From the NCBI GenBank assembly GCA_903857795.1, contig CAIOGM010000128.1, positions 4,857-68,856 on the forward strand: a stretch of DNA of 64,000 nucleotides, written 5' to 3'. The translations under genes were made by a program, and so were the position numbers. Under the pieces are notes generated by a model. It saw only the letters and a program-made list of their open reading frames with translations. It was not told the origin of the DNA and searched no databases. Shown piece by piece: positions 12,523-32,563 of this stretch (the first letter of the stretch is position 1; each line of letters starts with the position of its first letter). The stretch comes from an uncultured Geobacter sp. GTDB lineage: Bacteria; Desulfobacterota; Desulfuromonadia; Geobacterales; CAIOGM01.

Positions 12523-12618
12523 TTGCAGTTATGCGGAGATTGGATAAAAAGTGTGTCAACGGCGAGTCCGGGTTCATTTTTTCTGTAACCATTCTTAAAA
12601 CCATGCGGGTGTGGATTT

Positions 12619-14443: not shown

Positions 14444-14451
14444 GGACGCGA

Positions 14452-14548: not shown

Positions 14549-14586
14549 GAGTTTGCTCAGAAAGGGTGAAGAGTGAAGTTGTCAGT

Positions 14587-16527
14587 CTAAAACTTCCCAT
14601 TGAGGTCGATCTGCAAGACATTGACCCCCAGCGGCGGTCCGGTAATTTCATTTGATGAGAGCCATCGCATTTTTAACCAGAAGTTTTTCGCCAACCCAAG
14701 TTCGCCTCCCAGTATCCACCCCTTGGCGTTGGTCCCCCCCAGTGCGAAATCGGTATCGGTAAAGGCGTCCATGACGGCGTCCGCGCCGAGGTATTTGTAG
14801 AACAGAAACGCCCTCCACTCCCCGAACGACTCCAGTTGAGGATGTCCGAACACGGCGCCTACCTGGAAGCCATTAACATCTGCCTCCAAGCTCGGGTCGA
14901 GTGTTTTCGTTTTAGCCTGATTCAGATCGAATCCGAGGTTGCGCACGTAGTCGCCGATAATCACCAGATGGCGGCGCTCCCAAAATCCGAGATCCACCGA
15001 AGCAGTGACATTCAACTCGTGATATGAGGACGCCAGGGCCAGCTGGTAGCCGGTGGTCGGGTCGACATCGAAGTAGGTGTTACCTTTCTGCGTGAAACCG
15101 GGCAAGGTGGAATTAGGCGCGACACTGTTCGGGTTGGAAAAATCCCCCGTGACATTGTCGAAGTAGTAGTAGGCAAGCCCCATTTTGACATTTACTTCCT
15201 TGCGGGGTTGATACTGAACGCCGGCCTGACCGCCGAAGAGCCATTTATCTTTGGTGGTGTAGTCAAACTCCTGGAGGGGGAATACCCCTGCGGTAAAGAA
15301 CCCGCCTACATTTGAAGATAACGGTACGCTGCTCTGCAGTACCATCCCGTCAAAGGTCAGATTAGGTGACCAGACAAGATCGGTGCAGAAGAACGGATTA
15401 GGGATTCGTCCGCCCCACAGGGAGATATCTTTGGCGGGGGTCCACTTCAGATAGGCAAGATCCATGATAGTGCTGTATTTCTTTTCATAATTGCCCATGG
15501 TCTGGTTATTGGTGACCGGATTGTCCAGATTACCGGTCGCCAGTCGGATCATGGCCTCGATTTCATCGGATATCTTGACCGAGACCCCCAGCCTGGCCCT
15601 CATCAGAAAGCGGTTCCTGTCCACGGTGGTGTTGTACAGTATCAATCCGGTGGCGGGACTGTAGGGGATATAATTATTCGCGGAGAAAAAATCGCCCTCA
15701 TACCGGAGGCGGATATCGCCGCTCAGCTTGAAGCGTTTGACCCATTCCGGCAGGGCGTTGGCCTTGGCCTGCTGCTCCATCGCCTCCTTGACCTCATTCT
15801 TGATATCGGTCTGAACATCCTTGTGCACCTGCCGAACGTACCCCTGCTCCCTCTGGTCCAGCGCCGTTTGCACCACGCCCGTCAGATGATTCTGGTGATA
15901 TCGGGCGTCCAGCTGGGTGGCTTCTTCGGGGCTGAGCACGCCTGTGGCGCGCAGCCTGGTAATGGCCAGGCCGATGTCCGCCGGTTCCCCGAGCATCGCC
16001 GGGAAATCAGCGGCCTCATTGCCGGCGGCCAGCCACTGGCGACGTAACTGCTCGATAAGAGCAGCGTCTTCCTCCGGCAGAGCCAGGTGATTCGCTGACA
16101 CTTCGGCCGCGGCCGGTTTCTCTGTTCCCTTTCCGCCACCGGCGGCAAGATTTTGCTGCCGGCGTTGACGCAAGCCGTCGGCCTCGGGAGGCTTGATCAC
16201 TCCCCGCTCTTGCAGGAGATCAACAATGGCGAGAAAATCGTCACCCCCCGTTCCCTTGCCGACTTTTTTGGTCAATGCATCGGCATCATCTTGCCTGATG
16301 ATCTTTTTCTGGACAAGCAGCTCCAATAATGGCCCGACAATCCCCGCGGAGTCAGCGGCGGGCCGAGCATCAGCGCTGCAGGAAACACCGGCAAAGAGCA
16401 GAGTGGCACAGGTGGCAATCAGCGCACCTCGGCAAAACGTCCGCAATCGGTCGGAAACACGAATAATCGCACTGCTCTCGGCTTTTCGACTCACAACTCT
16501 CTTCTGATTCATACGATGACCTTTCAC
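14587..16527 (-). CDS. outer-membrane beta-barrel protein (putative porin family, no plug domain) with ~250-aa N-terminal periplasmic extension
   Basis: 646 aa with a signal segment (ATCATLLFAGVSCSADA). The N-terminal region has three short repeats (KKIIRQDDADAL, RGVIKPPEADGL, TGVLSPEEATQL). The C-terminal ~380 aa has an alternating beta-strand pattern ending in LNGKF. Its start overlaps the tonB-like stop (ATGA). Confidence 0.6.
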   Translation of the reverse strand: MKGHRMNQKRVVSRKAESSAIIRVSDRLRTFCRGALIATCATLLFAGVSCSADARPAADSAGIVGPLLELLVQKKIIRQDDADALTKKVGKGTGGDDFLAIVDLLQERGVIKPPEADGLRQRRQQNLAAGGGKGTEKPAAAEVSANHLALPEEDAALIEQLRRQWLAAGNEAADFPAMLGEPADIGLAITRLRATGVLSPEEATQLDARYHQNHLTGVVQTALDQREQGYVRQVHKDVQTDIKNEVKEAMEQQAKANALPEWVKRFKLSGDIRLRYEGDFFSANNYIPYSPATGLILYNTTVDRNRFLMRARLGVSVKISDEIEAMIRLATGNLDNPVTNNQTMGNYEKKYSTIMDLAYLKWTPAKDISLWGGRIPNPFFCTDLVWSPNLTFDGMVLQSSVPLSSNVGGFFTAGVFPLQEFDYTTKDKWLFGGQAGVQYQPRKEVNVKMGLAYYYFDNVTGDFSNPNSVAPNSTLPGFTQKGNTYFDVDPTTGYQLALASSYHELNVTASVDLGFWERRHLVIIGDYVRNLGFDLNQAKTKTLDPSLEADVNGFQVGAVFGHPQLESFGEWRAFLFYKYLGADAVMDAFTDTDFALGGTNAKGWILGGELGLAKNFWLKMRWLSSNEITGPPLGVNVLQIDLNGKF

Positions 16528-17255
16528 CCTTGTGATGATACCTTGATTGTCATGCCGCTGGGCATCCCTTCGGGCGGCGCTTCTGTCATTCTGATGGCGC
16601 TCACTGTCTCCCTGACAGCCTTGTCCATCCGGTCATTACCGGATGGACCCACAATTCGGTACTCAATGATGGCGCCTTTGGGGTCGAGCGTGATCTTGAC
16701 CAGAGTCTGATATTTCCCCTTGGGAAATCCGCCATCCAGGTCCAGGCGTTTCTTGACCTGCGCTCGAATCTCGTCCTGGATTTTTCTCGTGTACCAGCCG
16801 TATTTTGCCAAAAGCGACAACCTGCCCGCGCTGCCGGCGCCGGTTCCTCCACCTATGAGGGCTCGCCCCCCTTTACCCTTGCCCACTAGGCCGAAACCGT
16901 CGGAACCTGCCCCCCCCTCCCCTTCGACCCCGAGGTCGGCGCCAGCGGGCGTGTTATCCTGAGGAGAGTCTTGTGGAGAGTTCCGGGGCGTTTCGATGAC
17001 TTGCTCCACACTCTGCTTGGGCAGTTCCTTCTGAACTTCCGGCTCCGGCACTTTTTCCTTGACCGGTGGCGGAGGCCTGAGCAGAGCGATGTTGGCGATG
17101 TTATTTTTTCGCCTCGGCCCCACCTCGGTGGTCACGACTTTGATCGCAAACAGGATAATTCCTGATACTACCAGCCCGAGACAGCCGAAGAGCACCCAGT
17201 TGGCGACATTGTCGCCACGCCGCTTTTTCTTTTTTACCACGGGAAAACTCCTCAT
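16524..17255 (-). CDS. TonB/TolA-like energy-transducer protein
   Basis: It has an N-terminal basic segment plus one TM helix (WVLFGCLGLVVSGIILFAI). A Pro/Glu/Lys-rich spacer (RPPPPVKEKVPEPEVQKELPK) and a Gly-rich linker follow. The C-terminal ~90 aa looks like TonB_C (GKYQTLVKITLDPKGAIIEYRIVGPSGNDRMDKAV). The TM helix has no His of the TonB SxxxH motif. Confidence 0.65.
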   Translation of the reverse strand: MRSFPVVKKKKRRGDNVANWVLFGCLGLVVSGIILFAIKVVTTEVGPRRKNNIANIALLRPPPPVKEKVPEPEVQKELPKQSVEQVIETPRNSPQDSPQDNTPAGADLGVEGEGGAGSDGFGLVGKGKGGRALIGGGTGAGSAGRLSLLAKYGWYTRKIQDEIRAQVKKRLDLDGGFPKGKYQTLVKITLDPKGAIIEYRIVGPSGNDRMDKAVRETVSAIRMTEAPPEGMPSGMTIKVSSQG

Positions 17256-17260
17256 TATTG

Positions 17261-17668
17261 CTACTTCACCAGCTTCTGGGTAACCAGACCCAACTGGGTG
17301 ATCTCCAGTTTCTGGAGGAGGTCGAGCACCTCGATGATATTCTTGTAGGTCACCTTTTCATCCCCCCTGACCACCACCGGCAGGTTAGGATCACCGGCTT
17401 TGTACGAACGGAGCTTCGACTCCAGTTCCGTGAGGGAAACAGGGAAACTGTCAAGGAAGATGGTGCCGTCGGCGGTCACCGTGATCGCCCGGGTGCTAGG
17501 CTTGATCTTACTGGCGGTAGAACTGGCCTTCGGCAGATTTACGCTGATCCCCTGCACCGATGCTGTCACCACTATCATGAAGACAACGAGGAGGTTCCAG
17601 GCCAGGTCCAAGAGCGGAACGACATTTATTTCGACAATATCTTCATGATCGTCCGATGGCCCTGTCAT
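17261..17668 (-). CDS. exbD: ExbD/TolR family biopolymer transport protein
   Basis: 135 aa. INVVPLLDLAWNLLVVFMIV carries the conserved TM Asp, followed by a periplasmic ExbD fold (ITVTADGTIFLD...VVVRGDEKVTYKNIIEVLDLL). The start overlaps the exbB-like stop (ATGA). Confidence 0.85.
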   Translation of the reverse strand: MTGPSDDHEDIVEINVVPLLDLAWNLLVVFMIVVTASVQGISVNLPKASSTASKIKPSTRAITVTADGTIFLDSFPVSLTELESKLRSYKAGDPNLPVVVRGDEKVTYKNIIEVLDLLQKLEITQLGLVTQKLVK

Positions 17669-19470
17669 GTGGTTGCCCCATACACGTCTTCGATCTTCAC
17701 CAGCAGTTCATCAATGAAGGTGCGATTGTCCGCACTGACCATTTTCATCCTGACATTCAGGTAGCTGTAAGCGAAAAGCGTCGGGATGGCCACGAAGAGA
17801 CCGAAGAGGGTGCAGGCCAGCGCCGAGGCCACACCGGGCGCTATGGCCGAGAGGTTGGCTTCTCCTGCCTCGGCGAGGGCGGCAAAGGTGTTCATGACCC
17901 CCCAAACGGTCCCCAGCAGGCCCCAGAACGGTCCGCCGGAGATTCCCAGCGTAAGAACGATCATCCAGGCCGACATCCGTTGAGCTTCGCGAACACTAGC
18001 CCGGTCCAGGGCCGAACGATAGATATTGATGACTGATGGTGTCAGCCGGTCGATGACCAGTTCATCTCCTTCCTTGGAGTGCCGGGACAACCACTTGACG
18101 ATTTCGTCGTGACCGGCCATATAGACCCGATACAGCGAAGAGTGCTCGAACGTCCCCTCTTCGGATTCCGTCAGTCCCAGAGGATCATGGTTGTCCTTGA
18201 AGGCCTCGAGGAAGTCCCGGTTGTCCCGCTGAATTTTATTGAGCAGCAAAAACTTCAGGATGAACACAAAGAGCGCCAGTAAGAGCATGAAGGTACACAA
18301 ACCGATGACCAGCCAGCCATCCAGGGTGACAGACTTGGATATCACCTTCATGAGGTGAATGGTGAGGTCTTCACCGCCCCCCTTACCGGCTTCTTCCTGC
18401 ATGAGTCCGGCAAGCTTGGCGTCCTGCCCCTGGCTGCCGGCTTCGAGAGCTATCCAGGTCGACGGTCTGGCCAGTGACGATATTTCCACTTCATCGAGTT
18501 CGCCGGAGTAAAAATGCCCCCCCTTTATCGTCCCGCCGATGGCTATTTCATCGGATGGTGAGGGGAGGGCATCCTTGAGTGGTGCGGATACAGCCTCTTT
18601 GCCGTCGAGATACACCGTAACCTTCTTGCCGGGTTCCGCCGTGACGGCGAGGTGATGCCAACCGGCTGCGGGAACCGGCGCGCCCTTCGTCGTCACTCCC
18701 TTGCCGGCGCCGGTGGCGATGCTGCACCAGGCTCCGGACTTATCAAGACCGATGATCAGCGACTGCTTGCCGTCATCCCACGAAAAGAGCCGCGCGTCTC
18801 CGGGAGTCGCCGCCGGCTTGAGCCAGGCGGAAAAGGTGAATCCCTTGGTAAAGTTGAGCGACGGCGCCCGTTTGACGATTATCCGATCGCTGGCGCCGTT
18901 GAAGAGGACGCCGTTACCGATGACTGCGGGCACCCCGAGCTTGCCGCTGAAATCGGCGGCATGATTGCCGTAGGCGGTGGCGTCACGGGGAGAACCATCC
19001 TTTTCATCGAAGTGGAAGACCAGGGATTGGCCCGTATCATAGGTTCCACCACTGTCACCCGCCGCTTGAACCGAACTGTTGCCGTAATACGCCCAGACAA
19101 AATCCTGACCGGAACCACCAGAGATCTGGGGCGCCCTGACCCAGACCAGAGCGATCTCCTGTTTTGAATCGTACTTCTCGATATGAAATTTGAGTGGAGT
19201 CTTGTCGTCACCGCTCACAAAACGGAGGTCCGACCCATCCTCCTTGGCGTTGGTAAAGGAAAAGTTCGCCGTATGAAGCCGGAGCAGCACCGGGATCTCG
19301 GTGATATTCTCCTTGAGATCCGCGCCTTTGGCGGTAGTGTCGAAGGCGACTTTTTTTCTGAACTGCCACTTGGCGTCCCACCATGCCTCTGCCTGGAGTG
19401 CTCCTCCCAGGAGTGTCGCAAGCAGCACGGCGGCAATGACGCCGTACTTTCCGGTAAACTTTCCTTCCAT
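17665..19470 (-). CDS. MotA/TolQ/ExbB proton-channel protein with N-terminal signal peptide + DUF2341 + LamG-like (concanavalin-type lectin) periplasmic domains
   Basis: 601 aa. After the signal peptide, the N-terminal part reads WWDAKWQFRKKVAFDT...IPVLLRLH...DGSDLRFVSGDDKTPLKFHIEKYD...ALVWVRAP...YYGN, which matches the DUF2341 pattern. Next comes FTFSAWLKP...WHHLAVT...VTVYLDG (LamG-like). The C-terminal 3-TM ExbB core carries GPFWGLLGTVWGVMNTF and IAPGVASALACTLFGLFVAIP. Confidence 0.8.
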   Translation of the reverse strand: MEGKFTGKYGVIAAVLLATLLGGALQAEAWWDAKWQFRKKVAFDTTAKGADLKENITEIPVLLRLHTANFSFTNAKEDGSDLRFVSGDDKTPLKFHIEKYDSKQEIALVWVRAPQISGGSGQDFVWAYYGNSSVQAAGDSGGTYDTGQSLVFHFDEKDGSPRDATAYGNHAADFSGKLGVPAVIGNGVLFNGASDRIIVKRAPSLNFTKGFTFSAWLKPAATPGDARLFSWDDGKQSLIIGLDKSGAWCSIATGAGKGVTTKGAPVPAAGWHHLAVTAEPGKKVTVYLDGKEAVSAPLKDALPSPSDEIAIGGTIKGGHFYSGELDEVEISSLARPSTWIALEAGSQGQDAKLAGLMQEEAGKGGGEDLTIHLMKVISKSVTLDGWLVIGLCTFMLLLALFVFILKFLLLNKIQRDNRDFLEAFKDNHDPLGLTESEEGTFEHSSLYRVYMAGHDEIVKWLSRHSKEGDELVIDRLTPSVINIYRSALDRASVREAQRMSAWMIVLTLGISGGPFWGLLGTVWGVMNTFAALAEAGEANLSAIAPGVASALACTLFGLFVAIPTLFAYSYLNVRMKMVSADNRTFIDELLVKIEDVYGATT

Positions 19471-19501
19471 GTAAATCCCTCCGCGTCCCGATTATAGGTA
19501 G

Positions 19502-22500
19502 TTACCTGCGCTTCTTTTCCAGCGGCCCGTCTTGGGGCTCTGTCTGTTCCGGGGTGTCAAAACTTATTATCTTCACGTCGAGCCAAGAGGCGACGAGGTC
19601 ATCCATAAGCCTCTTTTTGAGAGAAGCTCCCTGCTCGCCGGACGCAGCCATTGTGGTGCTCTGTTCCATGGATTTGGTCGCCTGAGACATTGATCCGGTC
19701 CCGGACAGAGTACCCAGACTCACCCCTGGTCCACCTGCCGACGGTGCGGGACCGCTGGCAGCCGTAAAATTCCCGGCATTGAGGAGAGTCGGAGCATAAT
19801 AGGCGATCTTGTTCCCCGAGATGCCCGCCTCTCCCGCATCTATGAAACCACTGGGGGCAAAGGGATAGATGTTGCCCATCATGGGCGTTTCCGGCGCCAA
19901 GCCCTTGTTGTACCATTTTGCGGCTATCCCGCTCCCCACGGCTGGGGGGGTGAACTGCACAACGAGCGGGCTGTTGGGATCGTTGGGGTTCGAGCGAACG
20001 AGTTTGGGCGGTTGGGCATTGATGGCCGTGCGTGATCCCCGTCCGGCGTTGATTCCCCCCTGGTCGCTCCACATGGTGATATCACCCCCCCGAAAAGTCA
20101 TTACCCGTGACTCATTGACGTTCATATTGCCGACAGACAGCATGTTGATCTGACCACCATTTGCCGTATAGATACCGGTAGATTGCTGCTGAGAGGTCGC
20201 CTTGCTCTTGTCCAGGATGAGAGTACTCTTGCCGACGTTGATCACCCCTCCCGCGAATATATTGATTGCATCGGCACCCGAATTGGTGCTGATCTGGGAA
20301 GAGGTCATGTTGATGGTCCCTGTAGCCTCACCGGTCGTGCTGAACAGCGGCTTTATCAGTTTAGTGCGCGCCGTCTCGATCTGCGTTTTCGCGCCGGCAG
20401 TATCACCGGAGCTGCTCAGGTCACTGGCCTTCTGCCCATAGCCCCGCAGGGTGTCAAAGAACCGCTGCTCCATGGAAACCGCGGCGGGAGCCTGATCAGG
20501 GGTGAGAGCGGTAAAACTGCCGGAATCCTTCAAGGCGCCGAGGGCCACGTTAATATCATCACCAAGCCCGGCGACTATCGTGACATCGCTCCCTTTGGCG
20601 CCGAATCCGAGGTTGTAGAAATTGCCAAAGGTCTGGACCCCTTTGGAACTGCCGAAATCGATACTGTTACCCGCCTGGATGGTCAAACTGCCGGGCCCAC
20701 CCAGCTGAAATCCCGCCTCCAGGGTATCCAACTGTCCGCCCGCCGAACTGAATGAGATATCTCTTCCCGCCTTGATCGACGAGACCTCGTCAGCACGGTT
20801 ATTCTGACCGGAATAGAGGAGGTTACTGATGTCCCGACCGGCGGTAATACCGGAGCTGCGCGCCAGAGCGATCTGGACGTTTTTGATGTCACGGCCCGCT
20901 GTGAGCTGCGCCGTATCGGCGCTCCGCTGCGCCACCAGGGCCGCAGCATGGGTCTGGGCACTGAATTGGTTCGCATTGGGATAGGACGTGCGGGATTGCA
21001 CGCCGTACACCAGGGCAGGATCACCATCCCCCATGACGATGGACCCCTTGAACGGTACCGGTCCGTTGCCGGTCTGCACAAAGCTGGAGCCGTCCAGATC
21101 CCGACCGGCACTCAAAATGAGCGTCCCGGTGGCCGACGGCGCCAGGTAAAAGCTGTTCTCGATAGTGATATCACGAGCCGCCGTCATCACCAACGTGGGG
21201 GGGAGCAGGCGAGTCGACCAGGCAGTCGTGGAGGAGTAGATGCCGGGGTCGGCCTGCCCCGTCAGACTGATATCACCGGTCATCGAGGTGATCCCCACGG
21301 CCGTATCAGCGCCGTACTTGAGGTTCCACGCCTTGTAGGTCAACGCTTTGTCGCCGGCGACAGAAGGATCCGCTATGGTCGCGATCTTGACGTCACCCTG
21401 GGCAATCAGGTCGATCCGGCCGCTGTGTAATGCTTCGAGCACGGTGCCGTTGGCGTTTCCAACACTGCTGGCGCTATGTAAGGTTCCCGAACCGAGCCCG
21501 CTCAGGAAGCGGCCGTTCAAATCACCACCTGAAGAGACCGTCAGATTCCCGCTCCCGAAGACACCGACCTGACCGGAAATGTCACCGCCGCTTTTCAGTG
21601 ACAGATTGCCTCCTCCCATGGTCGCCAGGCCGGCGGTGGCATACTGACCGCTGCCGGTGGCATACGCCGGGGACCAGTAATAATCAGCACCAGCCGTTGT
21701 TCGGCGTTGCGTCACCATGTCCCAGGCATTCTTATCCAGCGAACCGGTCACCGATCCGCCAAGAGTGACGGATATATCCCCGCCGCCGGTAAAATCCCAG
21801 AACTCTTTGGTCCTGGTCGACGACGTTGACGCCTGATTATATTCGCCGGTGGTCCGGATGGCGCCGTTACCGACGCCGGCGAGAAGATTCAGCTCTCCGC
21901 CGATACCAAGCGAAATGGAACCGGTAGCCGACTGTAGCGCCGCCTGGACGCCGGTTGCGCCCTGGAATGAGAGCGAACCTCCCACCTGACCTTCGATGGC
22001 GCCCCGGTATGTCGCCAGCGAATAGCGCATGAACGTCGAAGCATCCAGCATATACCCTGCCGGCTTGCCGGCCGAGATGATCGTGTCGCCTCCCGAGGCA
22101 AACCGGACGTTACCGCTCTCCGTATAAATCGTTTCGTTGACGCCGGTCGTCAACACCCCTTCCTGAGCCGGATGGCTTACGATTTGGGTCACCAGGGGAT
22201 TGGCTGCGGCAAGGTCGCTCCCGGCTACGAAGGTATAATTCCAGGAAGGCTGAGCTGTCGCCGCAACAAGCGTTGTCGCCGGAGTCGGAGCATCAGAGAT
22301 ACTGCTTTTCAGGGCAAGTTTCCCGGCGGCCCGCAGCGTCAGCGAGCCCGATTCGCCGGCATAACGCCAGGAGGTGAGATCCCAGGGAGCAGTGACCGTC
22401 AAATCACCGCTGCTTCGCAGCTCGATTCCCGGCTGAAGATGTACTGACGAGGCGCCGCCCCCCTTCAGGAGCAATCCGGAATCGAGACGTTGAGCCTCGG

Positions 22501-25500: not shown

Positions 25501-28500
25501 TAAATGTAAACGCGGATGGGATGAAATTGAGATCACCGCCTGGATTGTACAGGGGATCGATGTTGCCGGCCTGGGTCTGCATCCCCGGGTAAATCCGGTC
25601 GGCCTTGAGGGTGAGGTCTCCGCCGGTGCTCAAGGAGCCGAGCCAGACATTCGCGCTGCCGTCGGACGGCGTTGCGTAGAATCGGTCGTACAGCCTCATA
25701 TCCCGTTTCAGATCGAAAGTTGTCGAGGAGAAGCCGGACAGCGCAATCTGTCCGGTTACATCAACCCATTCACCCAGGATATTGAACCGGGTCGTTCCGG
25801 ATAGGCCGCTTTTTGCCAGGAGTTGCGTGCTGTTGGCAAGTTGCACCCAGGGGGCCTGGATGCTGACCTGGTAGGCGCCGCCGCCGACAATTTCCGGGGC
25901 GTCAAGAGAGAAGCTTCGCCCGAGAGCCAGATCGAGTGAAGCGGGAAAGAGAATCGACTTCTTGCTGCCGAGCGAAACAGCGTCGAAGCCGTTTTCCGCC
26001 AGAGCCGTCAGATAGGGGGAATCCACGGTAAGCGGGGTCGTCTCGCTGAGACTGGTGAGAGTGAATGCAGCTCCGCGACCTCCGGCAACCGTTGTCTTGC
26101 CGGTAATTAACCCGGCAAGGGACAGTGCGCCGCCATAGGTGAGGCTCACCGAACCGGGTTCGCTCCCCTGATTCAGAGTGACCGGCTTGCCGGTGTCGGT
26201 TACGACCTGAGTCTCGACGGGAGATGCACCGGAAACATCAATCCGGGCGGTGGCCGGGATTATCAGTGCGCCATTACGGGCGATAATTTTGACATCGCCC
26301 GCCGCCATGGGGGTGACCGTTCCGCCACTAGCCGCGGTTGTATCTCTGATATACCCGGCTGCGGAAATCTCCGCCCCGGAGCTCATGGTCACATCGCCGC
26401 CGGCAAGAACGGTAATTTTACCTCCCGGAGCATCGAGTTTCCCGGAAAGGTCAATGGTCCCATGATCGCTAAACTTAACATTAGAGTCGGGCTTGACGGC
26501 GTAGGTCAGCTTGTTGAGGTCGAACTGCCCCTTGGTGAGCAGATTGATCTGCCCGCCGGGTCCGGAACGAAGCGTGGCTTCAGTTCCAACGGATACGCTT
26601 GAAAACTGAGAGGCCATGCCGTCGATACCCTGGAGATTGCCGGTAGCGACAGTAGAAGAACCGGCAAAGGTCACCCCCCCGGCAAGTGTCAGGGAACTCG
26701 ATCCCTGATAATCTGCTGACGTGGGGAGTTCGAGCGGAACTACGGTGTTTCGGGGCTGACCGGCGCCCCCTCCGACGACACCGCCGGAAACAGGAAGCAA
26801 CAACTTGACATTCGAGGTGGTAAGCGTAACGCCGGGGTCCACGTTTACCGAAGAGCGGCCGAAGAGATCAATGGTGGAAAACCCCGATGCGGCGATACCG
26901 TCGGCGCTTGCCACCACTCTGCCGATCCGATCCGGAGGCAGGGGTGAAGAGGCGTCAAAGGTTGCGGCAAGAGTCTGCGGTGCGCTTTGGACCACCACGA
27001 CGTTCCCCGCTTGGAGTACCAACGTCCCCCCGTTCTTACCGGGCAACGATGCCCCGTGCAGATCGCCGTCGATAATGATGGCGTCCCCCTGAAGCGCCAG
27101 CAGACCGGCGTTCCCTCCGGTTACCTTGCCCATGGTATCGACAAGGTAGCCGCCACCCGCATCTATCGAAGAACCGGACCGGACGATGACTCCTTTCCCG
27201 GTGTCGGTGTCATCCGCAATGGTGACGGAGCCGCCGTTGATATGGGCCGAGGGGAGGTATTGCTGAAGAGCGGCGCCCCCACCGACAAGATTGGTCCGTT
27301 GCCCGGCAACGGAGATGCGGCTTCCCTCGGCTATATAGACGAGTGATTCTAGTGGGTTACCTGCAGAGTCGGCAGGAAGCGGCGTCGTGTTGTCGCTGGT
27401 CTTGAGAGTAACGCTTCCGCCCGGAATGCTGATCTCTCCCCGATATTCGATACGCCTGGCTCCGGTTGTCAGCCCGGAACCCGGATTCATCGCAATGTGG
27501 GAGCCGCTTTCAAACGTGGCCACATTATTGGCATAGAGGTTCAAACTTCCCAGCCGGGCTTCATTGAGTATCGAGGACGATACCTCGGTCACCTGGGGAA
27601 TGCCTGCCGCCGGGAGATCATGAACTTGGGGAGTGACAGTTTGTCGCACCGTTATCGTGTCAACTATGGAATTGCTCACAGTGGGGTCATCGGAGGGTTT
27701 AATGCCGAGGGTAAAAGTTCCGGCCACCGGTTCCGCTCTGCCGAGGGTTATCTGCTGCCCCAGGGAGTTTGTCAGTTCAGCGGCGACATTCTGGTAAAAA
27801 CCTCTGCTTACATGACCATCAAGAGCGCCGTACAGATCAACCCGTTTGGCTGACAGTGTGGCGGTTCCGGCGTCAGCCCCTTCGATATAGTTGGAAATAG
27901 TGTTGTTGACCGAAGAAGAGCCGCCGAGATAGAGCCCGGAATAGCTCTTCGTGATACCGTACTTGCTGTTCGTGAAGTTCTGCGTTGAACTGATCAGGTT
28001 GTACGCCATCTGGGCGGGTGCGGTACTTATTGAGTAGCCCCTGTTCCCGGACGCCAGCCAGGTGGCAGTTGCTTCACCGGAACCATACCGGACACCACCG
28101 CCTGAAAAGTTCAGCGTTGACCCCGCACTGGAGACAATATCGCCCGTGGGCACGGAAACCGTGATGGCGCCGCCATTGACGCTGCGTTCACGGGTCGTTA
28201 ATTCTTGAGAAGTGATCGTTCCGGAGATGTCACCGATTGCCGACCCGGTCAAAGGGTTCACGGTCACCGTCTGCCCCAACAGAATGCCATTTTTCTGCTG
28301 CTGTGCGTCTCGCAGCACCACGCTGCTGAGCATGACCGGGGTCATCTGATCGCTAGCCGGTTTGTCCAGCCAGACGCCGCTCACGTCTATGGTGCTTCCT
28401 GCCCCAAGCAGCGCCCGCTCCGAAGCCTTCAAGGTGACCGTTCCGGAAGGAGAGGAAATCAGCCCCTGATGATCGATACGTTTGACTGTGGCGGAGGCGA

Positions 28501-29635
28501 GAGCCGGGTTATCCGACTCCAGACCGCCGATCAGGATCGTTCCCCCGTTGTAGGGAAATGATTCGTGCACTTTTTCGGCGGAAGTATCAGGCGGAGTTTC
28601 GGTTCTGCTGTTCACCCCGGTCTGCACGAGCTCGCTGGCCTTGAGCTCTATCTGGCCGTTAACCTTGACTGCGGTTATAGACCTGATGATTCCCTGCTGC
28701 TGAACCGTTCCCCCGTACATCCCCACCAGGCCGTTATCGGCCTCCAGCAGACCGGCTTCTTGATTGACCGCGAGCCCGGGAGCGCCATTAACCCTGGCGA
28801 CCAGCGCCGTTCTCGTGGAATTGCCCGACGTGTCGGTCGCCAGCACCAGGTCGGTTCCGGCCACCAGACCTATTTGTCCCATGGGCGAACTGATGGAACC
28901 GGCATTTTCGACCTTCGGGGCCAGCAGGAAGACCGAGCCGAGTTCATCGGTTCTTATCGTTCCCAGGTTGGATACTGCCGATGACGAATCAAAGGGAACC
29001 GGAACGCCTTGAGCGTCGGTCTGGTAGCTTTCCCCTTTGAAGGTAAGATTAACCGCCGCGGCGGGATTGAGAAAATCACTGTCCGCCATTTTGAAGTTCA
29101 GGGTGGAGGCGATCAGTGAGTGAACAGCTACCTGTGAACCGGCGCCAAAGAGTATCCCGTTCTGGTTGATCAGGTAAACCTTGCCGTCAGCCTGCAACTT
29201 GCCGTAAATCTGTGATGGATTCAGATCATGTATCCGGTTCAAAGCAATCCAGTCGGGCTGCTTTTGCCATACCGGCTGGCTGGTGGCCGGATCGATGTAC
29301 ACCGAGCCATCAGAATTGCTCTTCATTTTCTGCTGTTTGAAATAGACCCAGGAGTTGGCCCCGATGTTGAAGGACTTCCAGTCAATGACAGTCCGGGGCT
29401 GGTTCTGATCGATCACCAGCGAGCTGGGTGAAGCGGTAATGCTGGAAACGCCCGGAATAACAGCTGATTGCGTCAGAGCCGCCGGGTTCTGGGGGACCGG
29501 CAGGACTTGGGAGACCACCGGAGGCAGGGTGCGATTGGCGGCGACAAAATTGGCGGGAACTCCGGCGGCCCCGACGAACAGCGGATTAACGCTGGTCGCT
29601 AGTATGATCACCATGGCGATCAGTTGTCGTTTCAT
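19502..29635 (-). CDS. giant two-partner-secretion exoprotein (TpsA; filamentous-haemagglutinin family), 3377 aa
   Basis: A signal peptide is followed by a TPS secretion domain (VIDWKSFNIGANSWVYFKQ...LNRIHDLNPSQIYGKLQADGKVYLINQNGILFGAGSQV). Beta-helix-type Gly/Ala/Ser/Thr repeats then run for thousands of residues, including AGRDI-type repeats. The gene starts 54 nt downstream of the tpsB stop (29690). Confidence 0.9.
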   Translation of the reverse strand: MKRQLIAMVIILATSVNPLFVGAAGVPANFVAANRTLPPVVSQVLPVPQNPAALTQSAVIPGVSSITASPSSLVIDQNQPRTVIDWKSFNIGANSWVYFKQQKMKSNSDGSVYIDPATSQPVWQKQPDWIALNRIHDLNPSQIYGKLQADGKVYLINQNGILFGAGSQVAVHSLIASTLNFKMADSDFLNPAAAVNLTFKGESYQTDAQGVPVPFDSSSAVSNLGTIRTDELGSVFLLAPKVENAGSISSPMGQIGLVAGTDLVLATDTSGNSTRTALVARVNGAPGLAVNQEAGLLEADNGLVGMYGGTVQQQGIIRSITAVKVNGQIELKASELVQTGVNSRTETPPDTSAEKVHESFPYNGGTILIGGLESDNPALASATVKRIDHQGLISSPSGTVTLKASERALLGAGSTIDVSGVWLDKPASDQMTPVMLSSVVLRDAQQQKNGILLGQTVTVNPLTGSAIGDISGTITSQELTTRERSVNGGAITVSVPTGDIVSSAGSTLNFSGGGVRYGSGEATATWLASGNRGYSISTAPAQMAYNLISSTQNFTNSKYGITKSYSGLYLGGSSSVNNTISNYIEGADAGTATLSAKRVDLYGALDGHVSRGFYQNVAAELTNSLGQQITLGRAEPVAGTFTLGIKPSDDPTVSNSIVDTITVRQTVTPQVHDLPAAGIPQVTEVSSSILNEARLGSLNLYANNVATFESGSHIAMNPGSGLTTGARRIEYRGEISIPGGSVTLKTSDNTTPLPADSAGNPLESLVYIAEGSRISVAGQRTNLVGGGAALQQYLPSAHINGGSVTIADDTDTGKGVIVRSGSSIDAGGGYLVDTMGKVTGGNAGLLALQGDAIIIDGDLHGASLPGKNGGTLVLQAGNVVVVQSAPQTLAATFDASSPLPPDRIGRVVASADGIAASGFSTIDLFGRSSVNVDPGVTLTTSNVKLLLPVSGGVVGGGAGQPRNTVVPLELPTSADYQGSSSLTLAGGVTFAGSSTVATGNLQGIDGMASQFSSVSVGTEATLRSGPGGQINLLTKGQFDLNKLTYAVKPDSNVKFSDHGTIDLSGKLDAPGGKITVLAGGDVTMSSGAEISAAGYIRDTTAASGGTVTPMAAGDVKIIARNGALIIPATARIDVSGASPVETQVVTDTGKPVTLNQGSEPGSVSLTYGGALSLAGLITGKTTVAGGRGAAFTLTSLSETTPLTVDSPYLTALAENGFDAVSLGSKKSILFPASLDLALGRSFSLDAPEIVGGGAYQVSIQAPWVQLANSTQLLAKSGLSGTTRFNILGEWVDVTGQIALSGFSSTTFDLKRDMRLYDRFYATPSDGSANVWLGSLSTGGDLTLKADRIYPGMQTQAGNIDPLYNPGGDLNFIPSAFTFTSEGKITTLPSDVRSEQAIYSAGGSLTLNAKGGIENRGTLAAPLGAINLNTDPVYGSNSRVYLAEGSRLTTAGSALIPYGFVDTDQNLNVTDKSNSAVTGVVVTSAPGKSVTIGGNEIVVREGATIDISGGGSVYSYKFQSGIEGSFNPLTVKGRFVILPDSPVAAPGAAVYLNSGNGVAAGAYSILPEQYAFLPGAMVVTDLGVLGSSGVTTLTKEGYPVVSGFATTAGTSLGAPQLHTYSVRSALDVRREGNFSLNREFVAGEAGTVTVKGTTTILNGTISAQALSGSGGGKVALSGGTIVVAADAAPLPASFAFDTPFDGDLKELKGTLYLASGALAGKGFREIDLGVIDTVNAASSTATVTLKQGSTLSAPVVSLAAVNGVTLESGVIISAIDPKGGGTAGVLTKGVLTIQSDAQIHASDRISLDAVSLDAPGSTPLLVDHGVLGITGDHMNLVSDAYLTAHPGVQAATPGIYLTETFWATVNGFGSLELKSRNDLKFLGDVTLALKKDANQNEIPLSLTLDAARIGVLDPGAQGVNVSVTKLTLMNSGSASTLVAPDSSGAAGRLNLAAVDATIALNAADVSGPPKERKGDLIFNGFGTVNFAVTNDLALAGAGRVMTGGADLSLTAARVVTTYFSDAAIPYRAAGFIVDAGTAGTVTISRSAGTAGSSATPGGSLQVLARNIEQTGTVQSSAGQVSYTAQGTIDLKSGAEILARGVEYSAGQDGVKPTDPGGKVLLVATVGAVNVDQGARIDVSAAGGGDAGSINLSASVGGVTLKGELTGTADGGGKGGSLTLQTTDLSGFANDFSTLNSTLLVRGGFTEAIDIRTRTASSLTVAAGETVKARSVVLAVDGGDLNIRGTIDASGVTGGRVELYAGKNLNVYGELDAHATGADALGGEVVLGAGSFDSSGNPTGRLTIAGGSVNVSGAGAGKGGTVTLRAPRSATAMNADLNGSIVGAGQVIAEAYKSYDQTSVTATTIAALRRDTQNFMNFAGAEAQRLDSGLLLKGGGASSVHLQPGIELRSSGDLTVTAPWDLTSWRYAGESGSLTLRAAGKLALKSSISDAPTPATTLVAATAQPSWNYTFVAGSDLAAANPLVTQIVSHPAQEGVLTTGVNETIYTESGNVRFASGGDTIISAGKPAGYMLDASTFMRYSLATYRGAIEGQVGGSLSFQGATGVQAALQSATGSISLGIGGELNLLAGVGNGAIRTTGEYNQASTSSTRTKEFWDFTGGGDISVTLGGSVTGSLDKNAWDMVTQRRTTAGADYYWSPAYATGSGQYATAGLATMGGGNLSLKSGGDISGQVGVFGSGNLTVSSGGDLNGRFLSGLGSGTLHSASSVGNANGTVLEALHSGRIDLIAQGDVKIATIADPSVAGDKALTYKAWNLKYGADTAVGITSMTGDISLTGQADPGIYSSTTAWSTRLLPPTLVMTAARDITIENSFYLAPSATGTLILSAGRDLDGSSFVQTGNGPVPFKGSIVMGDGDPALVYGVQSRTSYPNANQFSAQTHAAALVAQRSADTAQLTAGRDIKNVQIALARSSGITAGRDISNLLYSGQNNRADEVSSIKAGRDISFSSAGGQLDTLEAGFQLGGPGSLTIQAGNSIDFGSSKGVQTFGNFYNLGFGAKGSDVTIVAGLGDDINVALGALKDSGSFTALTPDQAPAAVSMEQRFFDTLRGYGQKASDLSSSGDTAGAKTQIETARTKLIKPLFSTTGEATGTINMTSSQISTNSGADAINIFAGGVINVGKSTLILDKSKATSQQQSTGIYTANGGQINMLSVGNMNVNESRVMTFRGGDITMWSDQGGINAGRGSRTAINAQPPKLVRSNPNDPNSPLVVQFTPPAVGSGIAAKWYNKGLAPETPMMGNIYPFAPSGFIDAGEAGISGNKIAYYAPTLLNAGNFTAASGPAPSAGGPGVSLGTLSGTGSMSQATKSMEQSTTMAASGEQGASLKKRLMDDLVASWLDVKIISFDTPEQTEPQDGPLEKKRR

Positions 29636-29689
29636 AGTTCGAATTCCTTTGCCAGGACCGGAAATGACGTTCCCGGCAGGAGCTGATTT

Positions 29690-31390
29690 CTAGAATGAAT
29701 ACTTGACGAAGAAATGGATCCGATTCCTACCGTTGGCCGTGGAACTGGTGCTCTTCAGGGCATGTCCCAGGTCAAGCTCATAGTCTAAAATCCCCCATGC
29801 TCCGCCACGCATCCCAAGGCCTATTCCCTGGAGATCAAACCGGCGCGTCTGCCCGGGAAGCGGGTCTATGACCTCCAACCACGCTCCTTGATAAAAGAGG
29901 TAGGGGGTGCATCGCAGTTTGTCCTTGTAGCGACCGTATTGGAACAGTTCGGGAGAACGCAGTTCCGTACTCACATGAAACGAATTATCGCCCATTATTT
30001 CACTTTCATGGTACCCGCGGACGTTGTCTACCCCGCCTGCCGAGTACTGTTCATTGGAAATAAGCGGTTGGTCGGAAAGTTGTCCGTCGACTTTCGCATA
30101 CCACACCATATCCGCGGGCAGGTTCTGAGTCCGTTCCACACCGAGCGTCGCATAGATGTAGTTGCCATGAGCGTTATAACGCTTGTTCTCGAAATTCGAT
30201 TCGGTGGTTAATCCCCGAAACGAAAGATCAACCGCCCCGCTGAACTGGGTGTAGCCGCCGGTGTCCATAAGGGTAAGCCCATAGGCTAGAGAAAACGGAA
30301 CATAGGTAATTGGGGATGTGGTATTCGAGGAACCTCCCGAAAGGCCGGTCTCATCCTTGAAATCCTTATAATCAAGCCCCAGGCTCAGGTACTGGGTTAC
30401 AGTCGGATACTGCGGGAGCGTCGACTGATATCTCAGGCCAATAACACTGCCGTTGCCGATAGCCTTGAAACCCTCGCCAAAGGCGGTATTGCTCTTGTTA
30501 TAGATGCCGTAGAGGGCCAGACGATCCTGATCCCGACCGGGAATCGGGAGTGAATAGGCTGCGGAAACCGCCTGAACTTCATTGAGATCTTCGGGTGATG
30601 TCTGATACTGGATGCTGATTGCATGCTTTTTTTGCCAGAGGTTGTCGTAGCGGAGAGTTCCGTTGAATCGCAGGTCCGTGGTTCCCGCGGTATAGCGGTT
30701 GTTGAGTTCCGCACTGCCATGAAACGGCAGACGGTCCTCAACCTTCAGTTCCACATCCACAGTCCCCACCTCCCTGCCGGGAATGAGATTCGGCACGACC
30801 TTTATGTCGGGCGAGGAATTGATCAGATTGATGTCATTCTGGACTTTCGGCAGGTGAATGATTTCTCCGGGCGCCAGGGAAGGAAGGTCTGCAAGGATCT
30901 GCTCAGTGGAAAAGTAGTCGTTGCCGCTTACGGTGACTTTGTTGATCGTGCTTTCGATGACCTGAAACTTGACGATGCCGTCTTCGAGGGATTGCTCAGG
31001 AATGCTGACGAATACCGTCGGAAATCCCTTTTCGTGGTAAAATTTCTCCAGTGCGTCACGGGCTTTTTCCACATCGGCCGCCGTCTTGCCGGGTCCGGTA
31101 AATTCATGCAGCGAGATGCGATCCTGTTTGTCCGGAAAGAGCGTGTTCCCTTCCACCATGAATCCGTTGATCTCGAAGGTCGCGCTTTCGTCCGCCGCCG
31201 GTTCTGGCGGATCACCGGCCTGAGTCGGGATTTCCGCCGCTTCACCGCTCTGGGATGGCGGTTCTGCTGCGTCACCGGCCAGAGATTGCAGTTCTGCCGC
31301 CATCGGGTGCTCCGGCCGGATAATTCCCACCGATATCGTTATCAGGAACGCTACTAAAGCTCTGCGCAGTACGCCGGATTGAATAGTCAT
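29690..31390 (-). CDS. ShlB/FhaC/HecB-family TpsB outer-membrane transporter (POTRA + 16-strand barrel)
   Basis: 566 aa. POTRA-like segments are FEINGFMVEGNTLF...KARDALEKFYHEKGFPTVFVSIPEQSLEDGIVKFQVIES and VTVSGNDYFSTEQI. A ShlB-type barrel follows, ending in FFVKYSF. Confidence 0.85.
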   Translation of the reverse strand: MTIQSGVLRRALVAFLITISVGIIRPEHPMAAELQSLAGDAAEPPSQSGEAAEIPTQAGDPPEPAADESATFEINGFMVEGNTLFPDKQDRISLHEFTGPGKTAADVEKARDALEKFYHEKGFPTVFVSIPEQSLEDGIVKFQVIESTINKVTVSGNDYFSTEQILADLPSLAPGEIIHLPKVQNDINLINSSPDIKVVPNLIPGREVGTVDVELKVEDRLPFHGSAELNNRYTAGTTDLRFNGTLRYDNLWQKKHAISIQYQTSPEDLNEVQAVSAAYSLPIPGRDQDRLALYGIYNKSNTAFGEGFKAIGNGSVIGLRYQSTLPQYPTVTQYLSLGLDYKDFKDETGLSGGSSNTTSPITYVPFSLAYGLTLMDTGGYTQFSGAVDLSFRGLTTESNFENKRYNAHGNYIYATLGVERTQNLPADMVWYAKVDGQLSDQPLISNEQYSAGGVDNVRGYHESEIMGDNSFHVSTELRSPELFQYGRYKDKLRCTPYLFYQGAWLEVIDPLPGQTRRFDLQGIGLGMRGGAWGILDYELDLGHALKSTSSTANGRNRIHFFVKYSF

Positions 31391-31445
31391 ATTAACCTTA
31401 ATTTTTTTAATTATCGTTTAATTGCTCGACATATAAAAACACCGG

Positions 31446-32237
31446 TTACAACACACCGATATCACACGTCAGCTCTTCTCCGGCAAACGGCTTCGTAAAA
31501 TCAATTGTGAACGTCCGGTCGGTTACCGAGACGATGCGGCCAAGAAGAGGACCGGTTCGGACAATTGACCCTTCCTGCACTCCGATAACAATCTCATAGG
31601 TGTCTTTCCCTTCCCTGATGACCCCTGTTCCAAAAGGTGTCTCCACTTCGGTCCCCGGAGTAGCCTTGAACCTGATCACAATTCCGGTATCGGTAATCTC
31701 TGTCACAGCGCCGGGAATCGCCGGATCCAGGATAACTGCCGCACCAATTTCGGGGTTTTTCCCGAATCGGCTCGAAAACTCCTCACGAGTCAATTTCATC
31801 TCCCTGGGACGTTGCCGAACTCTGGCCATGGGAAGAAGTCGCGGCTTGCCGTCGGGACCGGGTATTGGATCGGCCGTGATCGAGATCCGTTTTGTTTCCC
31901 CCGGGGACATTCCGACGAGAGACCGGGCAGCCCCGTTCGCCAGTTCAACATCCAGGTCCCCCCGCGACCCCATGTCTCTCACTGCGTTCCCTGCGGTGAG
32001 ATGCAGTGGGCCATTCTCCTTGCGCGGCAGATAGAGACTGGAACGTTCCGACGTTGCAATTGACTCATCCGTGGTCATGAGAACTTTGCCATCGGGCATC
32101 CGGCAAGTGAGTTGCACGGAAACTGCGGAGTCATCCCTGACGACGGCCCGACTCCCCGCTGAACACCCGGACAGGACAGAGAACACGAACAGGACACCGA
32201 GCGCCTTGAATGCGCCATGGCAAATTTCTACTCTCAT
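31446..32237 (-). CDS. FKBP-type (SlyD-like) peptidyl-prolyl isomerase-like lipoprotein
   Basis: I prefer the ATG at 32237 (GAGG 7 nt upstream), which gives MRVEICHGAFKALGVLFVFSVLSGC|S with a lipobox. The track ORF starts at a TTG at 32258. FKBP-like landmarks are VSVQLTCRMPDGKVL, LVGMSPGETKRISI and the C-terminal IDFTKPFAGEELTCDIGVL (compare DxNHPLAGKxLxF in SlyD-type FKBPs). Confidence 0.5.
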   Translation of the reverse strand: MRVEICHGAFKALGVLFVFSVLSGCSAGSRAVVRDDSAVSVQLTCRMPDGKVLMTTDESIATSERSSLYLPRKENGPLHLTAGNAVRDMGSRGDLDVELANGAARSLVGMSPGETKRISITADPIPGPDGKPRLLPMARVRQRPREMKLTREEFSSRFGKNPEIGAAVILDPAIPGAVTEITDTGIVIRFKATPGTEVETPFGTGVIREGKDTYEIVIGVQEGSIVRTGPLLGRIVSVTDRTFTIDFTKPFAGEELTCDIGVL

Positions 32238-32563
32238 TCTTGACCTCGCTTGTATCAATTTGCAACGGCAGGCTATCAGATGATTGTTACGATTCGGCGC
32301 AGATTAGATGGAAGTTTTGAAAATATCCTGATTTCTCATGAATTCGTCAAAAAAGGCGGCAATGGATTCATTGGGAGGATCGATTCGAGCAGTTGCCGCA
32401 CCCGGCACCTCTCCACGGGATATAACCAGACCCGGCATCAGAAAAGGCAGTACCCCATGGCGGCCGCCGGAAAAAAGTATTGGATCAATTTCAGGATTTA
32501 GAACAGTTTGGAGCCTAGAACAGCAAAAAGGACCTACCCAATCGGATAAGTCCTCGTTTTTAC

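Follow-up and report, generated by a model that had tools for sequence, protein, structure and literature searches.

A two-partner secretion locus syntenic with a Tol/Ton-type proton motor and a plug-less porin in an uncultured Geobacter sp.

This work describes a group of seven genes in a stretch of DNA of 64,000 nucleotides (nt) from an uncultured Geobacter sp. (assembly GCA_903857795.1, contig CAIOGM010000128.1, positions 4,857 to 68,856 of the forward strand), the whole of which is called the window below. The genes encode a lipoprotein, the transporter TpsB and the giant exoprotein TpsA of a two-partner secretion (TPS) system, the three components of a Tol/Ton-type proton motor and an outer-membrane barrel of the Porin_5 family. 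The favoured reading, to which a probability of roughly 0.55 is assigned, is that they form one conserved trans-envelope module. It is considered very likely that the motor and the porin serve this TPS system as functionally dedicated parts. A TPS subclass that is mechanically coupled to the proton-motive force (PMF), with the motor gripping the C-terminal strand of TpsA either directly or via a stalked porin, is proposed only tentatively. The association of TPS genes with a motor is already known from Pseudomonas aeruginosa, and the window is a case from Desulfuromonadota without the PUMA3 regulators. New with respect to the literature searched are the breadth of the synteny beyond Proteobacteria and its independence of PUMA3, the architecture of the porin and a motif in the tail of TpsA.

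Results

A preliminary description of the window had listed seven head-to-tail open reading frames (ORFs) on the minus strand, and their coordinates, gaps and domains were confirmed by the ORF list and by Pfam. The first gene of the module (31446..32237) encodes a lipoprotein whose lipobox, LSGC, was read from the sequence. It is followed after 55 nt by the gene for TpsB (29690..31390), an Omp85-type protein with two POTRA domains and a ShlB barrel (Pfam POTRA_2, POTRA and ShlB), and after a further 54 nt by that for TpsA (19502..29635), a giant exoprotein of 3377 amino acids (aa) with matches to Pfam TPS and DUF3739 and to the NCBIfam model adhes_NPXG. A spacer of 31 nt separates tpsA from the gene for the motor stator (17665..19470), in which a signal peptide, DUF2341 and Laminin_G_3 are fused to MotA_ExbB (Pfam and AlphaFold2 (AF2) model); it is referred to as the ExbB fusion. 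The gene for the ExbD/TolR-like motor subunit (17261..17668; Pfam ExbD) overlaps that of the fusion in an ATGA, as had been described, and lies 5 nt from the gene for a TonB/TolA-like protein (16524..17255; Pfam TonB_2, 1.3e-12, and TonB_C, 2.8e-6). The last gene (14587..16527) encodes the Porin_5 outer-membrane protein (Pfam 1e-131). The Pfam accessions are PF12545 for DUF3739, PF10102 and PF01618 for the fusion and PF16930 for Porin_5. An ATGA had also been claimed for its overlap with the tonB stop codon; the overlap is in fact GTGA, the porin ORF opening at GTG 16527. ATG 16512, which has an AAGG Shine-Dalgarno sequence 7 nt upstream, is the likelier start, and a homolog of 95 % identity comprises 641 aa.

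The main evidence for a functional connection between these genes is their synteny. A profile of the ExbB fusion was built from 14 aligned homologs and used to scan one genome per GTDB species, which gave 399 fusion relatives. The best 80 loci were taken with 10-kb flanks and searched by tblastn with the window proteins. These loci belong to Geobacterales, Desulfuromonadales, Syntrophobacteraceae, Smithella, Syntrophorhabdales, Desulfobacterales, Desulfarculaceae and Nitrospirota/Thermodesulfovibrionia. Cultured carriers include Geobacter pickeringii, G. argillaceus and Geomesophilobacter sediminis. The C-terminus of TpsA (65 loci) or TpsB (7 loci) lies directly 5' of the fusion in 72 of the 73 loci with at least 1.5 kb of upstream sequence. 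On the 3' side of the fusion, ExbD was found in all 75 evaluable loci, the TonB-like protein in 67 of 68 and Porin_5 in 52 of 53. The synteny of the motor, the barrel and the TPS genes, on which the idea of the preliminary description depended, extends across phyla. In-frame fusions of TpsA and ExbB in L022, L032 and L058 were considered and rejected, as a stop codon is present.

The linkage does not depend on a fixed gene order. In L026, L043, L063, L066, L068, L073 and L076 the order is permuted, with tpsB abutting the fusion and tpsA elsewhere in the locus. Since the TPS-motor linkage outlasts this rearrangement, functional coupling is favoured. Two full modules per genome occur in three cases (L040/L057, L067/L068 and L069/L075). 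When distant Porin_5 proteins were used as seeds, the same module was found, and the lipoprotein as seed led to lipoprotein-tpsB-tpsA(DUF3739) in unrelated flanks. A locus from a metagenome-assembled genome labelled NC10 (L070) encodes a motor, a TonB-like protein, Porin_5, a PA0697-like protein and a SurA-like peptidyl-prolyl isomerase (PPIase) at 9860-16384; carbamoyl-phosphate and glutamate synthase genes lie upstream of these genes. That two independent systems are neighbours by mere chance is regarded as very unlikely. A TATAAT inside the 31-nt spacer would agree with it, but it is opposed by the conservation across phyla that survives permutation, by co-occurrence on plasmids, and by co-transcription and co-regulation in P. 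aeruginosa (PMC4971064, PMC7035377).

For mobile relatives, a set of 72,556 plasmids was searched by tblastn with the fusion. A full-length homolog with 33-41 % identity is present in 12 plasmid records, from Methylomagnum, Methylosinus, Burkholderia, Cupriavidus, Klebsiella, Variovorax, Ralstonia and Aquabacterium. According to the annotated plasmid contexts, a recurring block is found in Alpha-, Beta- and Gammaproteobacteria. Its core consists of TpsA, TpsB, the fusion, ExbD, TonB and a 'putative porin'. It is accompanied by vreAIR-like regulators, namely an STN-domain protein, an extracytoplasmic function (ECF) sigma factor and a FecR-like anti-sigma factor, and by a hypothetical protein, a YbjN protein, a PpiC isomerase and a LysR regulator. 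The window and the plasmid clusters are homologous component by component (tblastn, Pfam); on the Klebsiella plasmid, TpsA has 4121 aa with TPS and DUF3739 domains, and the full-length Porin_5 match reaches 685 bits. The DUF3739-type C-terminus of TpsA occurs in 16 plasmid records, including 11 of the 12 with a fusion.

The gene order of the Klebsiella plasmid equals the order published for PA0674-PA0701 of P. aeruginosa, which comprises vreA, vreI and vreR, further on pdtA, phdA, pdtB, exbB2, exbD2 and tonB4, and then PA0696 ('putative outer membrane porin'), PA0697, PA0698 (YbjN), PA0699 (PpiC) and PA0701 (LysR) (PMC7035377). By way of these plasmid clusters we infer that the module in the window is the Desulfuromonadota counterpart of the pdtA/pdtB-exbB2-exbD2-tonB4-PA0696 cluster. 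In P. aeruginosa, phdA-pdtB-exbB2D2-tonB4-PA0696-PA0701 form one transcription unit (PMC4971064), and the genes of the cluster are induced by sigma-VreI and phosphate starvation (PMC7035377, PMC2729926). It was noted in 2009 that homologs of the TPS genes, ExbBD and PA0696 accompany PUMA3 in several Proteobacteria (PMC2729926). The motor was described as "still uncharacterized" (PMC7035377), and in a 2017 review of TPS systems PdtA stands among the proteins of unknown function, the motor goes unmentioned and type V secretion is again said to be free of an energy source (PMC5422565). No later functional study of the P. aeruginosa motor was found in the literature searched. The preliminary description knew of no characterised system of this type; this has to be revised, as the homologous cluster of P. 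aeruginosa had already been published (PMC2729926, PMC4971064, PMC7035377).

The accessory genes differ between these clusters. With tblastn, neither the window nor the 80 loci gave a match to vreI or vreR; ECF sigma factors may have diverged too far for such a search. PA0697-like, YbjN and PpiC genes gave no tblastn match in the window; of the 80 related loci, 28-32 have PA0697-like, YbjN and PpiC/SurA-like genes. On the 3' side of the porin, a PA0697-like gene was found in 32 and a SurA-like PpiC gene (SurA_N and Rotamase) in 28 of these loci.

The motor components are well supported by Pfam, with scores of 3.4e-25 for MotA_ExbB and 2.2e-28 for ExbD. In the AF2 model of the stator (pLDDT, a predicted local distance difference test, of 73.8), a signal peptide precedes DUF2341 and LamG beta-sandwiches, which are placed on the periplasmic side of the membrane domain. 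This periplasmic domain comprises 350 aa, and Foldseek finds the head to resemble a jelly-roll lectin fold. For the membrane domain, the first Foldseek matches are TolQ in TolQRA structures determined by cryo-electron microscopy (24-26 % identity, TM-score 0.80-0.84), followed by ExbB. The motifs of the second and third transmembrane (TM) helices are invariant. The fusion family is large: the word index gave 1162 matches, and 1321 cluster representatives reach E <= 1e-30, the best 150 of which include about 100 full-length fusions. DUF2341-LamG units also occur in up to 21 tandem copies in giant proteins of 2000-7800 aa (P0251-P0257 and others), a distribution that suggests a modular adhesin-type binding domain. 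A functional study of DUF2341 or of the TpsA domain DUF3739 was not found in the literature searched.

The TM aspartate of ExbD is conserved (LLDLAW compared with FIDVML in E. coli ExbD 6tyi). With NCBIfam, exbB reaches 71.6 against a cut-off of 206 and ExbD 63 against 123-216; the TolQ and TolR models score above ExbB and ExbD, and all of them remain below the equivalog cut-offs. With phmmer, ExbD is nearer to E. coli ExbD than to TolR. The motor therefore represents a third branch that resembles Tol no less than Ton. In the TonB-like protein, an N-terminal TM helix is followed by a linker rich in Pro, Lys and Glu, a stretch rich in Gly and a conserved TonB_2 C-domain (64-sequence alignment); no significant match was found in the PDB with the single sequence. 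Neither TolB, Pal, YbgC nor CpoB genes were detected in the cluster with Pfam and NCBIfam, and a Plug or TonB_dep_Rec domain was found neither in the cluster nor in window ORFs of at least 600 aa. The premise that Ton motors serve only plugged TonB-dependent transporters (TBDTs), on which the preliminary description had relied, is too strict, with Tol-Pal and Agl-Glt as counter-examples (PMC11761067).

The last component, the barrel, had been described as lacking a plug, and this is upheld by the absence of TBDT Pfam domains and by the AF2 model, which is that of a 16-stranded porin. In this model (56-sequence alignment, pLDDT 79.6), helices cover residues 64-256 and about 16 strands residues 266-645. 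The N-terminus consists of three helical hairpin repeats (LLxxLxxKGxIxxxEAxxL) and a long helix forming a coiled-coil stalk, and Porin_5 is probably a stalked trimer. An assignment of the repeats to SHOCT domains was rejected, since it has no Pfam support and the repeats match the N-terminus of the Porin_5 model itself. The best Foldseek match is OmpM1 (8byt, 1e-16), followed by OmpF, OmpC, DcaP, Occ-family porins and AlgE; no TBDT is among the top 50 matches, nor was a TonB box recognised in the porin.

These structural matches bear on an explanation in which the motor and the stalked porin would form a link like Tol-Pal or OmpM that connects the outer membrane with the wall or the inner membrane and strengthens the envelope at the anchor of the fibre, or in which the motor would, in Proteobacteria, energise VreA-type signalling at the cell surface, so that the link to the TPS genes would be indirect. 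It is judged improbable. The best structural match of the porin is an outer-membrane-tethering protein and that of the motor is TolQ, the motor-porin-PA0697-SurA block of L070 has no TPS genes nearby, and vreA-like STN-domain genes flank the proteobacterial clusters. However, the cluster contains no SLH, OmpA-like, TolB or Pal component, the motor is kept although neither the window nor the 80 loci yielded vreAIR homologs, and adjacency to TPS genes in 72 of 73 loci is hard to explain by an indirect link.

Another function that the barrel could have is uptake, and scavenging in the manner of HxuCBA is seen as an unlikely explanation. TpsA would capture or process an external substrate, for example a polymer containing phosphate, a Porin_5 gated or energised by the TonB-like protein would be the uptake channel, and the motor would serve import. 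The general-porin fold of Porin_5 would suit this role, and hxuCBA is a precedent for a TPS system combined with TonB-dependent uptake (PMC5422565). In addition, the homologs in P. aeruginosa are members of the phosphate-starvation regulon, as are Hxc, a type II secretion system (T2SS), and the phosphatase LapA (PMC7035377, PMC2729926), and phosphatases, PhoX, a nuclease or a 5'-nucleotidase are encoded near some clusters. On the other hand, a 16-stranded diffusion porin needs no energy, and this one has neither a plug nor a TonB box that was recognised. Associated phosphatase or Pst genes were absent from the 80 deltaproteobacterial and Nitrospirota loci, and import would leave the DUF3739 tail motif and the dedicated chaperones unexplained.

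The TPS secretion domain of TpsA covers residues 66-330 (28646..29440, minus strand; PF05860 1.6e-20, TIGR01901 1.4e-18), and the protein is homologous to TpsA proteins in more than 70 loci. The hallmark of this TpsA class is DUF3739, located at residues 3183-3293 (19757..20089, minus strand; Pfam) and also present in the Klebsiella plasmid TpsA, in Porin_5-seeded loci and in a lipoprotein-seeded locus. Proteins of this class end with DUF3739, a disordered linker of about 55 aa rich in Ser, Thr, Gly and Ala, a strand W-L-D-V-K-V-I-(S/D)-F and an acidic tail. The strict motif WLDVKVI(S/D)F was found in 64 of the 69 aligned TpsA C-termini and near-variants in 4 more, at 4-26 residues from the C-terminus. 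In the window it reads WLDVKIISF (residues 3351-3359; 19559..19585, minus strand) and occurs once in 3377 aa. In proteobacterial TpsAs, the corresponding position is taken by ISVEILGYGDE or LTVELLSLGDE. The C-domains of TonB and TolA capture short amphipathic strands in disordered tails by beta-augmentation, and the TolA box of TolB, EVRIVIDSG (N-terminus verified), is similar in character to the tail strand of TpsA. The motif is therefore a candidate for a docking strand like a TonB or TolA box, and the resemblance is taken as a lead.

TpsB matches CdiB (6wim) with E = 5e-10, and the alignment starts from CdiB residue 42. A comparison of N-termini showed that the TpsB family lacks the conserved space that an H1 plug helix of the FhaC/CdiB type and its linker would require. 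In most members, including those of L026, L043, L063, L066 and L068, the signal peptide is separated from POTRA1 by only about 6-15 residues; the TpsB of the window has about 40 non-conserved residues rich in Pro, Glu and Ala at this position. Of the features of type Vb secretion, the window has a TpsA with a TPS domain and, adjoining it, a TpsB that carries both POTRA domains and the ShlB barrel, and it lacks the H1 helix.

The missing plug region would fit a PMF-dependent variant of type Vb secretion, in which the motor provides the force or the gating for export of TpsA through the H1-less TpsB or through Porin_5. This explanation is considered unlikely. PMF motors do power the type IX secretion system, and Oar/PopC is a precedent for TonB-dependent protein secretion (PMC6434023). 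Furthermore, tpsB-exbB-exbD-tonB-porin is an invariant block that may be common to several tpsA copies (PMC2729926). Yet equally large TpsAs such as FhaB and CdiA need no motor, and in liposomes the TPS pathway operates with no energy supply (PMC5422565). Outward transport is hard to square with a periplasmic rod pulling inwards, and the lumen of a 16-stranded porin is too narrow for a folded beta-helix.

The remaining component is the lipoprotein, which had been described as FKBP-like. This is weakly backed by an NCBIfam FKBP match (E = 2.8e-5) over the C-terminal 32 residues and finds no counterpart in Pfam. A profile of four lipoprotein sequences matched an archaeal FKBP in the PDB (1ix5, 1.6e-5, in two short segments), SlpA and SlyD. 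FKBP-like N- and C-terminal strands can be read from the sequence, and the Joint Genome Institute (JGI) labels two homologs as FKBP-type PPIase. The lipoprotein is probably a SlyD-like periplasmic chaperone or PPIase of the FKBP type. Homologs are encoded directly 5' of tpsA or tpsB in L043, L063, L068 and L076. With a SurA-like PpiC isomerase in relatives of the module and an FKBP-type lipoprotein in the window, this looks like a non-orthologous swap of a dedicated periplasmic chaperone.

The module is closed by a hairpin terminator (14452..14548) that is common to it and to the convergent ORF 14084-14443. Its description as a strong bidirectional terminator agrees with the predicted fold, a 22-bp perfect hairpin with a free energy of -51.5 kcal/mol and z = -7.3. 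The hairpin is made of three tandem CATCCGTGT units and their complement, which give the 22-bp perfect stem. No internal terminator had been noticed in the module. For the spacer between TpsA and the ExbB fusion (19471-19501) this holds, as no significant structure (z = +0.84) was found and no terminator-like site was called there. Between the lipoprotein gene and tpsB, a weak terminator-like site was detected together with one promoter-like site; the totals of terminator- and promoter-like sites across the region are within chance. The spacer 5' of the ExbB fusion contains a perfect TATAAT about 20 nt upstream of the ATG, with no matching -35 element and with a negative promoter scan, and an internal promoter is possible at this site.

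Upstream of the module, a non-coding region (32238..32555, minus strand) contains the terminator-like hairpin of glmS (32528-32555) and presumably the promoter region of the module. CTGTTCT repeats 5' of the lipoprotein gene are spaced 17 nt and not 11, where no thorough Pho-box search was made. Between the glmS stop codon and the hairpin, at about 32570-32602 on the minus strand, lies the sequence GGGTCGCGGGTTCGAATCCTGTTTCCCGCTCCA, which looks like a tRNA's 3' half. The idea that the stretch from glmS to the module contains a tRNA or att remnant was rejected, as neither ARAGORN nor Rfam calls anything; the tRNA-like sequence may be an old integration scar.

In the window, the module is flanked by a T2SS cluster and glmU-glmS upstream and by an exosortase/PEP-CTERM polysaccharide locus downstream. 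The glmS gene (32660-34525) lies upstream of the lipoprotein gene; in several genomes of Geobacterales (L002, L013, L016, L019, L025 and L054), glmS is on the other side, 1-4 kb 3' of the porin. The T2SS cluster (36390-47676, minus strand), located upstream of glmU-glmS, looks complete, with GspC, D, E, F, J and K and an L-like protein. A T2SS also flanks the modules of P. aeruginosa (Hxc), of the Cupriavidus plasmid L084, of L088 and of L071, and is not found at most loci. A general association with T2SS or phosphatase genes was rejected, since among the 80 loci a T2SS occurs only in L071 and PhoX or other phosphatases are essentially absent; the phosphate-starvation link may be specific to Proteobacteria. 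In L090, a divergent 940-aa 5'-nucleotidase (Metallophos and 5_nucleotid_C) and a PEP-CTERM protein are encoded at 441-3263, adjoining a lipoprotein-tpsB-tpsA module closely related to that of the window. On the downstream side of the module in the window, 674-13944 (minus strand) encodes exosortase EpsH/DUF3485, a PEP-CTERM protein, Wzy_C, WecG, GT4 glycosyltransferases, a large TPR protein and Poly_export, and is by its gene content an exopolysaccharide/PEP-CTERM locus.

Discussion

The reading of the seven genes as one module can be phrased as a mechanism. TpsB would export the fibre formed by the 3377-aa TpsA of the DUF3739 class, which would be chaperoned in the periplasm by the FKBP-type lipoprotein, as it would be by the SurA-like PpiC isomerase in relatives. 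The Tol/Ton-type proton motor in the inner membrane would be a dedicated accessory of the TPS system and not a nutrient importer. The C-terminal end of TpsA, with DUF3739, the linker, the strand and the acidic tail, would remain periplasmic, in the way of the C-termini of FhaB, CdiA and CdrA. There, the energised C-domain of the TonB/TolA-like protein could take the tail strand by beta-augmentation, dock on the periplasmic stalk of Porin_5, or do both. The PMF would thereby be coupled to holding, tensioning or releasing the fibre. The protein contacts and the direction of work in this scheme are all things that we infer, and capture of the C-terminal strand of TpsA by the motor, as the specific mechanism, is a doubtful though possible part of it that draws on the analogy with TonB and TolA. 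A PMF transducer dedicated to a giant exoprotein had also been suggested in the preliminary description. The dedicated link stands, given the synteny and the missing plug, but a role of the PMF in secretion, retention or release stays conjectural.

Several observations weigh against this interpretation. A short strand such as that in the tail of TpsA can resemble a TonB or TolA box by chance, and the retention of the TpsA C-terminus in the periplasm is an assumption made by analogy. The conserved S-H-L-S TM histidine of TonB and TolA was not found in the 64 members of the TonB-like family. L070 is the sole exception to the synteny, with no TPS gene within 10 kb. TPS secretion has been reconstituted without an energy source (PMC5422565). 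Some plasmids carry an 'orphan' tpsA with its own sigma/anti-sigma pair and no motor on the replicon, for example pOB3b1 of M. trichosporium. These orphan genes agree with the published picture, according to which several tpsA copies can use one common tpsB-exbB-exbD-tonB-porin block (PMC2729926). Finally, transposon mutants of tonB4 (PA0695) and PA0696 left the zebrafish lethality that VreI induces unchanged (PMC2729926). Since tpsA and tpsB mutants were equally without effect (PMC2729926), this assay is uninformative on the coupling.

Type V secretion, including TPS, is the textbook case of energy-free transport across the outer membrane, and the module bears on the question of whether any type V system is energy-coupled. 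It suggests either an energy-dependent step for giant fibres, be it display, tension or release, or a new use of a Tol/Ton motor. If the proposed mechanism is true, the motor would pull, hold or release the fibre, which would then be an adhesin that is powered or can be retracted, comparable to a focal adhesion in bacteria. It would also be the first case of energy coupling in type V secretion, in a system whose conservation extends from Pseudomonas to Geobacter and Nitrospirota. In Geobacter-type bacteria, the fibre may matter for the attachment to minerals, electrodes or partner cells. The P. aeruginosa cluster is a virulence locus of phosphate starvation whose motor has been unexplained since 2009, and transposon mutants exist, which makes the question directly testable.

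Comparison with known systems

The closest relative is the PUMA3 cluster PA0690-PA0699 of P. aeruginosa, to which the window is connected via the plasmid clusters. Both probably share the same core of a TpsA with TPS and DUF3739 domains, TpsB, DUF2341-LamG-ExbB, ExbD, a TonB-like protein and Porin_5, and both have a dedicated PPIase and an uncharacterised motor. Plasmids of Klebsiella, Methylosinus, Cupriavidus and Aquabacterium bridge the two with the same gene order. In contrast to P. aeruginosa, no vreAIR, PA0697, YbjN or PpiC genes were found in the window by tblastn, and an FKBP-type lipoprotein is present instead. The genes for tpsB, tpsA and the motor appear to be one operon in the window, whereas pdtA of P. 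aeruginosa has its own promoter. The porin of the window has three N-terminal hairpin repeats, compared with one in the proteobacterial cluster. Like OmpM of Veillonella and DcaP of Acinetobacter, it combines an N-terminal helical or coiled-coil extension with a 16-stranded barrel; unlike them, it has no SLH domain, and its hairpin repeats are a peculiarity of Porin_5.

Retention of the TpsA C-terminus is known from the FhaB prodomain, the secretion arrest of CdiA and CdrA-LapG. These retention modules use proteases, cyclic di-GMP or receptor binding, and to our knowledge none of them uses a PMF motor. The window resembles them in having a giant TpsA whose C-terminal part could stay in the periplasm and control display or release.

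With the Ton system, the window shares the three-gene layout of the motor and a TonB_C/TonB_2 domain behind a Pro-rich linker. It differs in having no TBDT, plug or recognised TonB box, in the 16-stranded barrel, in the missing TM histidine and in the 350-aa periplasmic domain of its ExbB. Tol-Pal offers the closest stator fold, TolQ, and the binding of the short N-terminal TolB strand EVRIVIDSG by TolA, but the window has no TolB, Pal, YbgC or CpoB genes, and its stator carries an extra periplasmic head. In hxuCBA of Haemophilus influenzae, a TPS pair is likewise linked to a Ton-energised outer-membrane protein (PMC5422565). There, HxuC is a plugged TBDT on the housekeeping Ton system, whereas the window brings its own motor and a plug-less porin.

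The Agl-Glt machinery of Myxococcus, which forms focal adhesions for gliding, differs in its adhesin CglB, which is a lipoprotein, and in its approximately 17 parts, some of them cytoplasmic, and homology to the module was shown for the motor and the folds of the TonB C-terminal domains (TonB-CTD). It is the nearest working analogy, as it joins a PMF motor of the TolQR/ExbBD type with TonB-CTD proteins, plug-less porin-like barrels and an adhesin into one trans-envelope unit that transmits force (PMC11761067).

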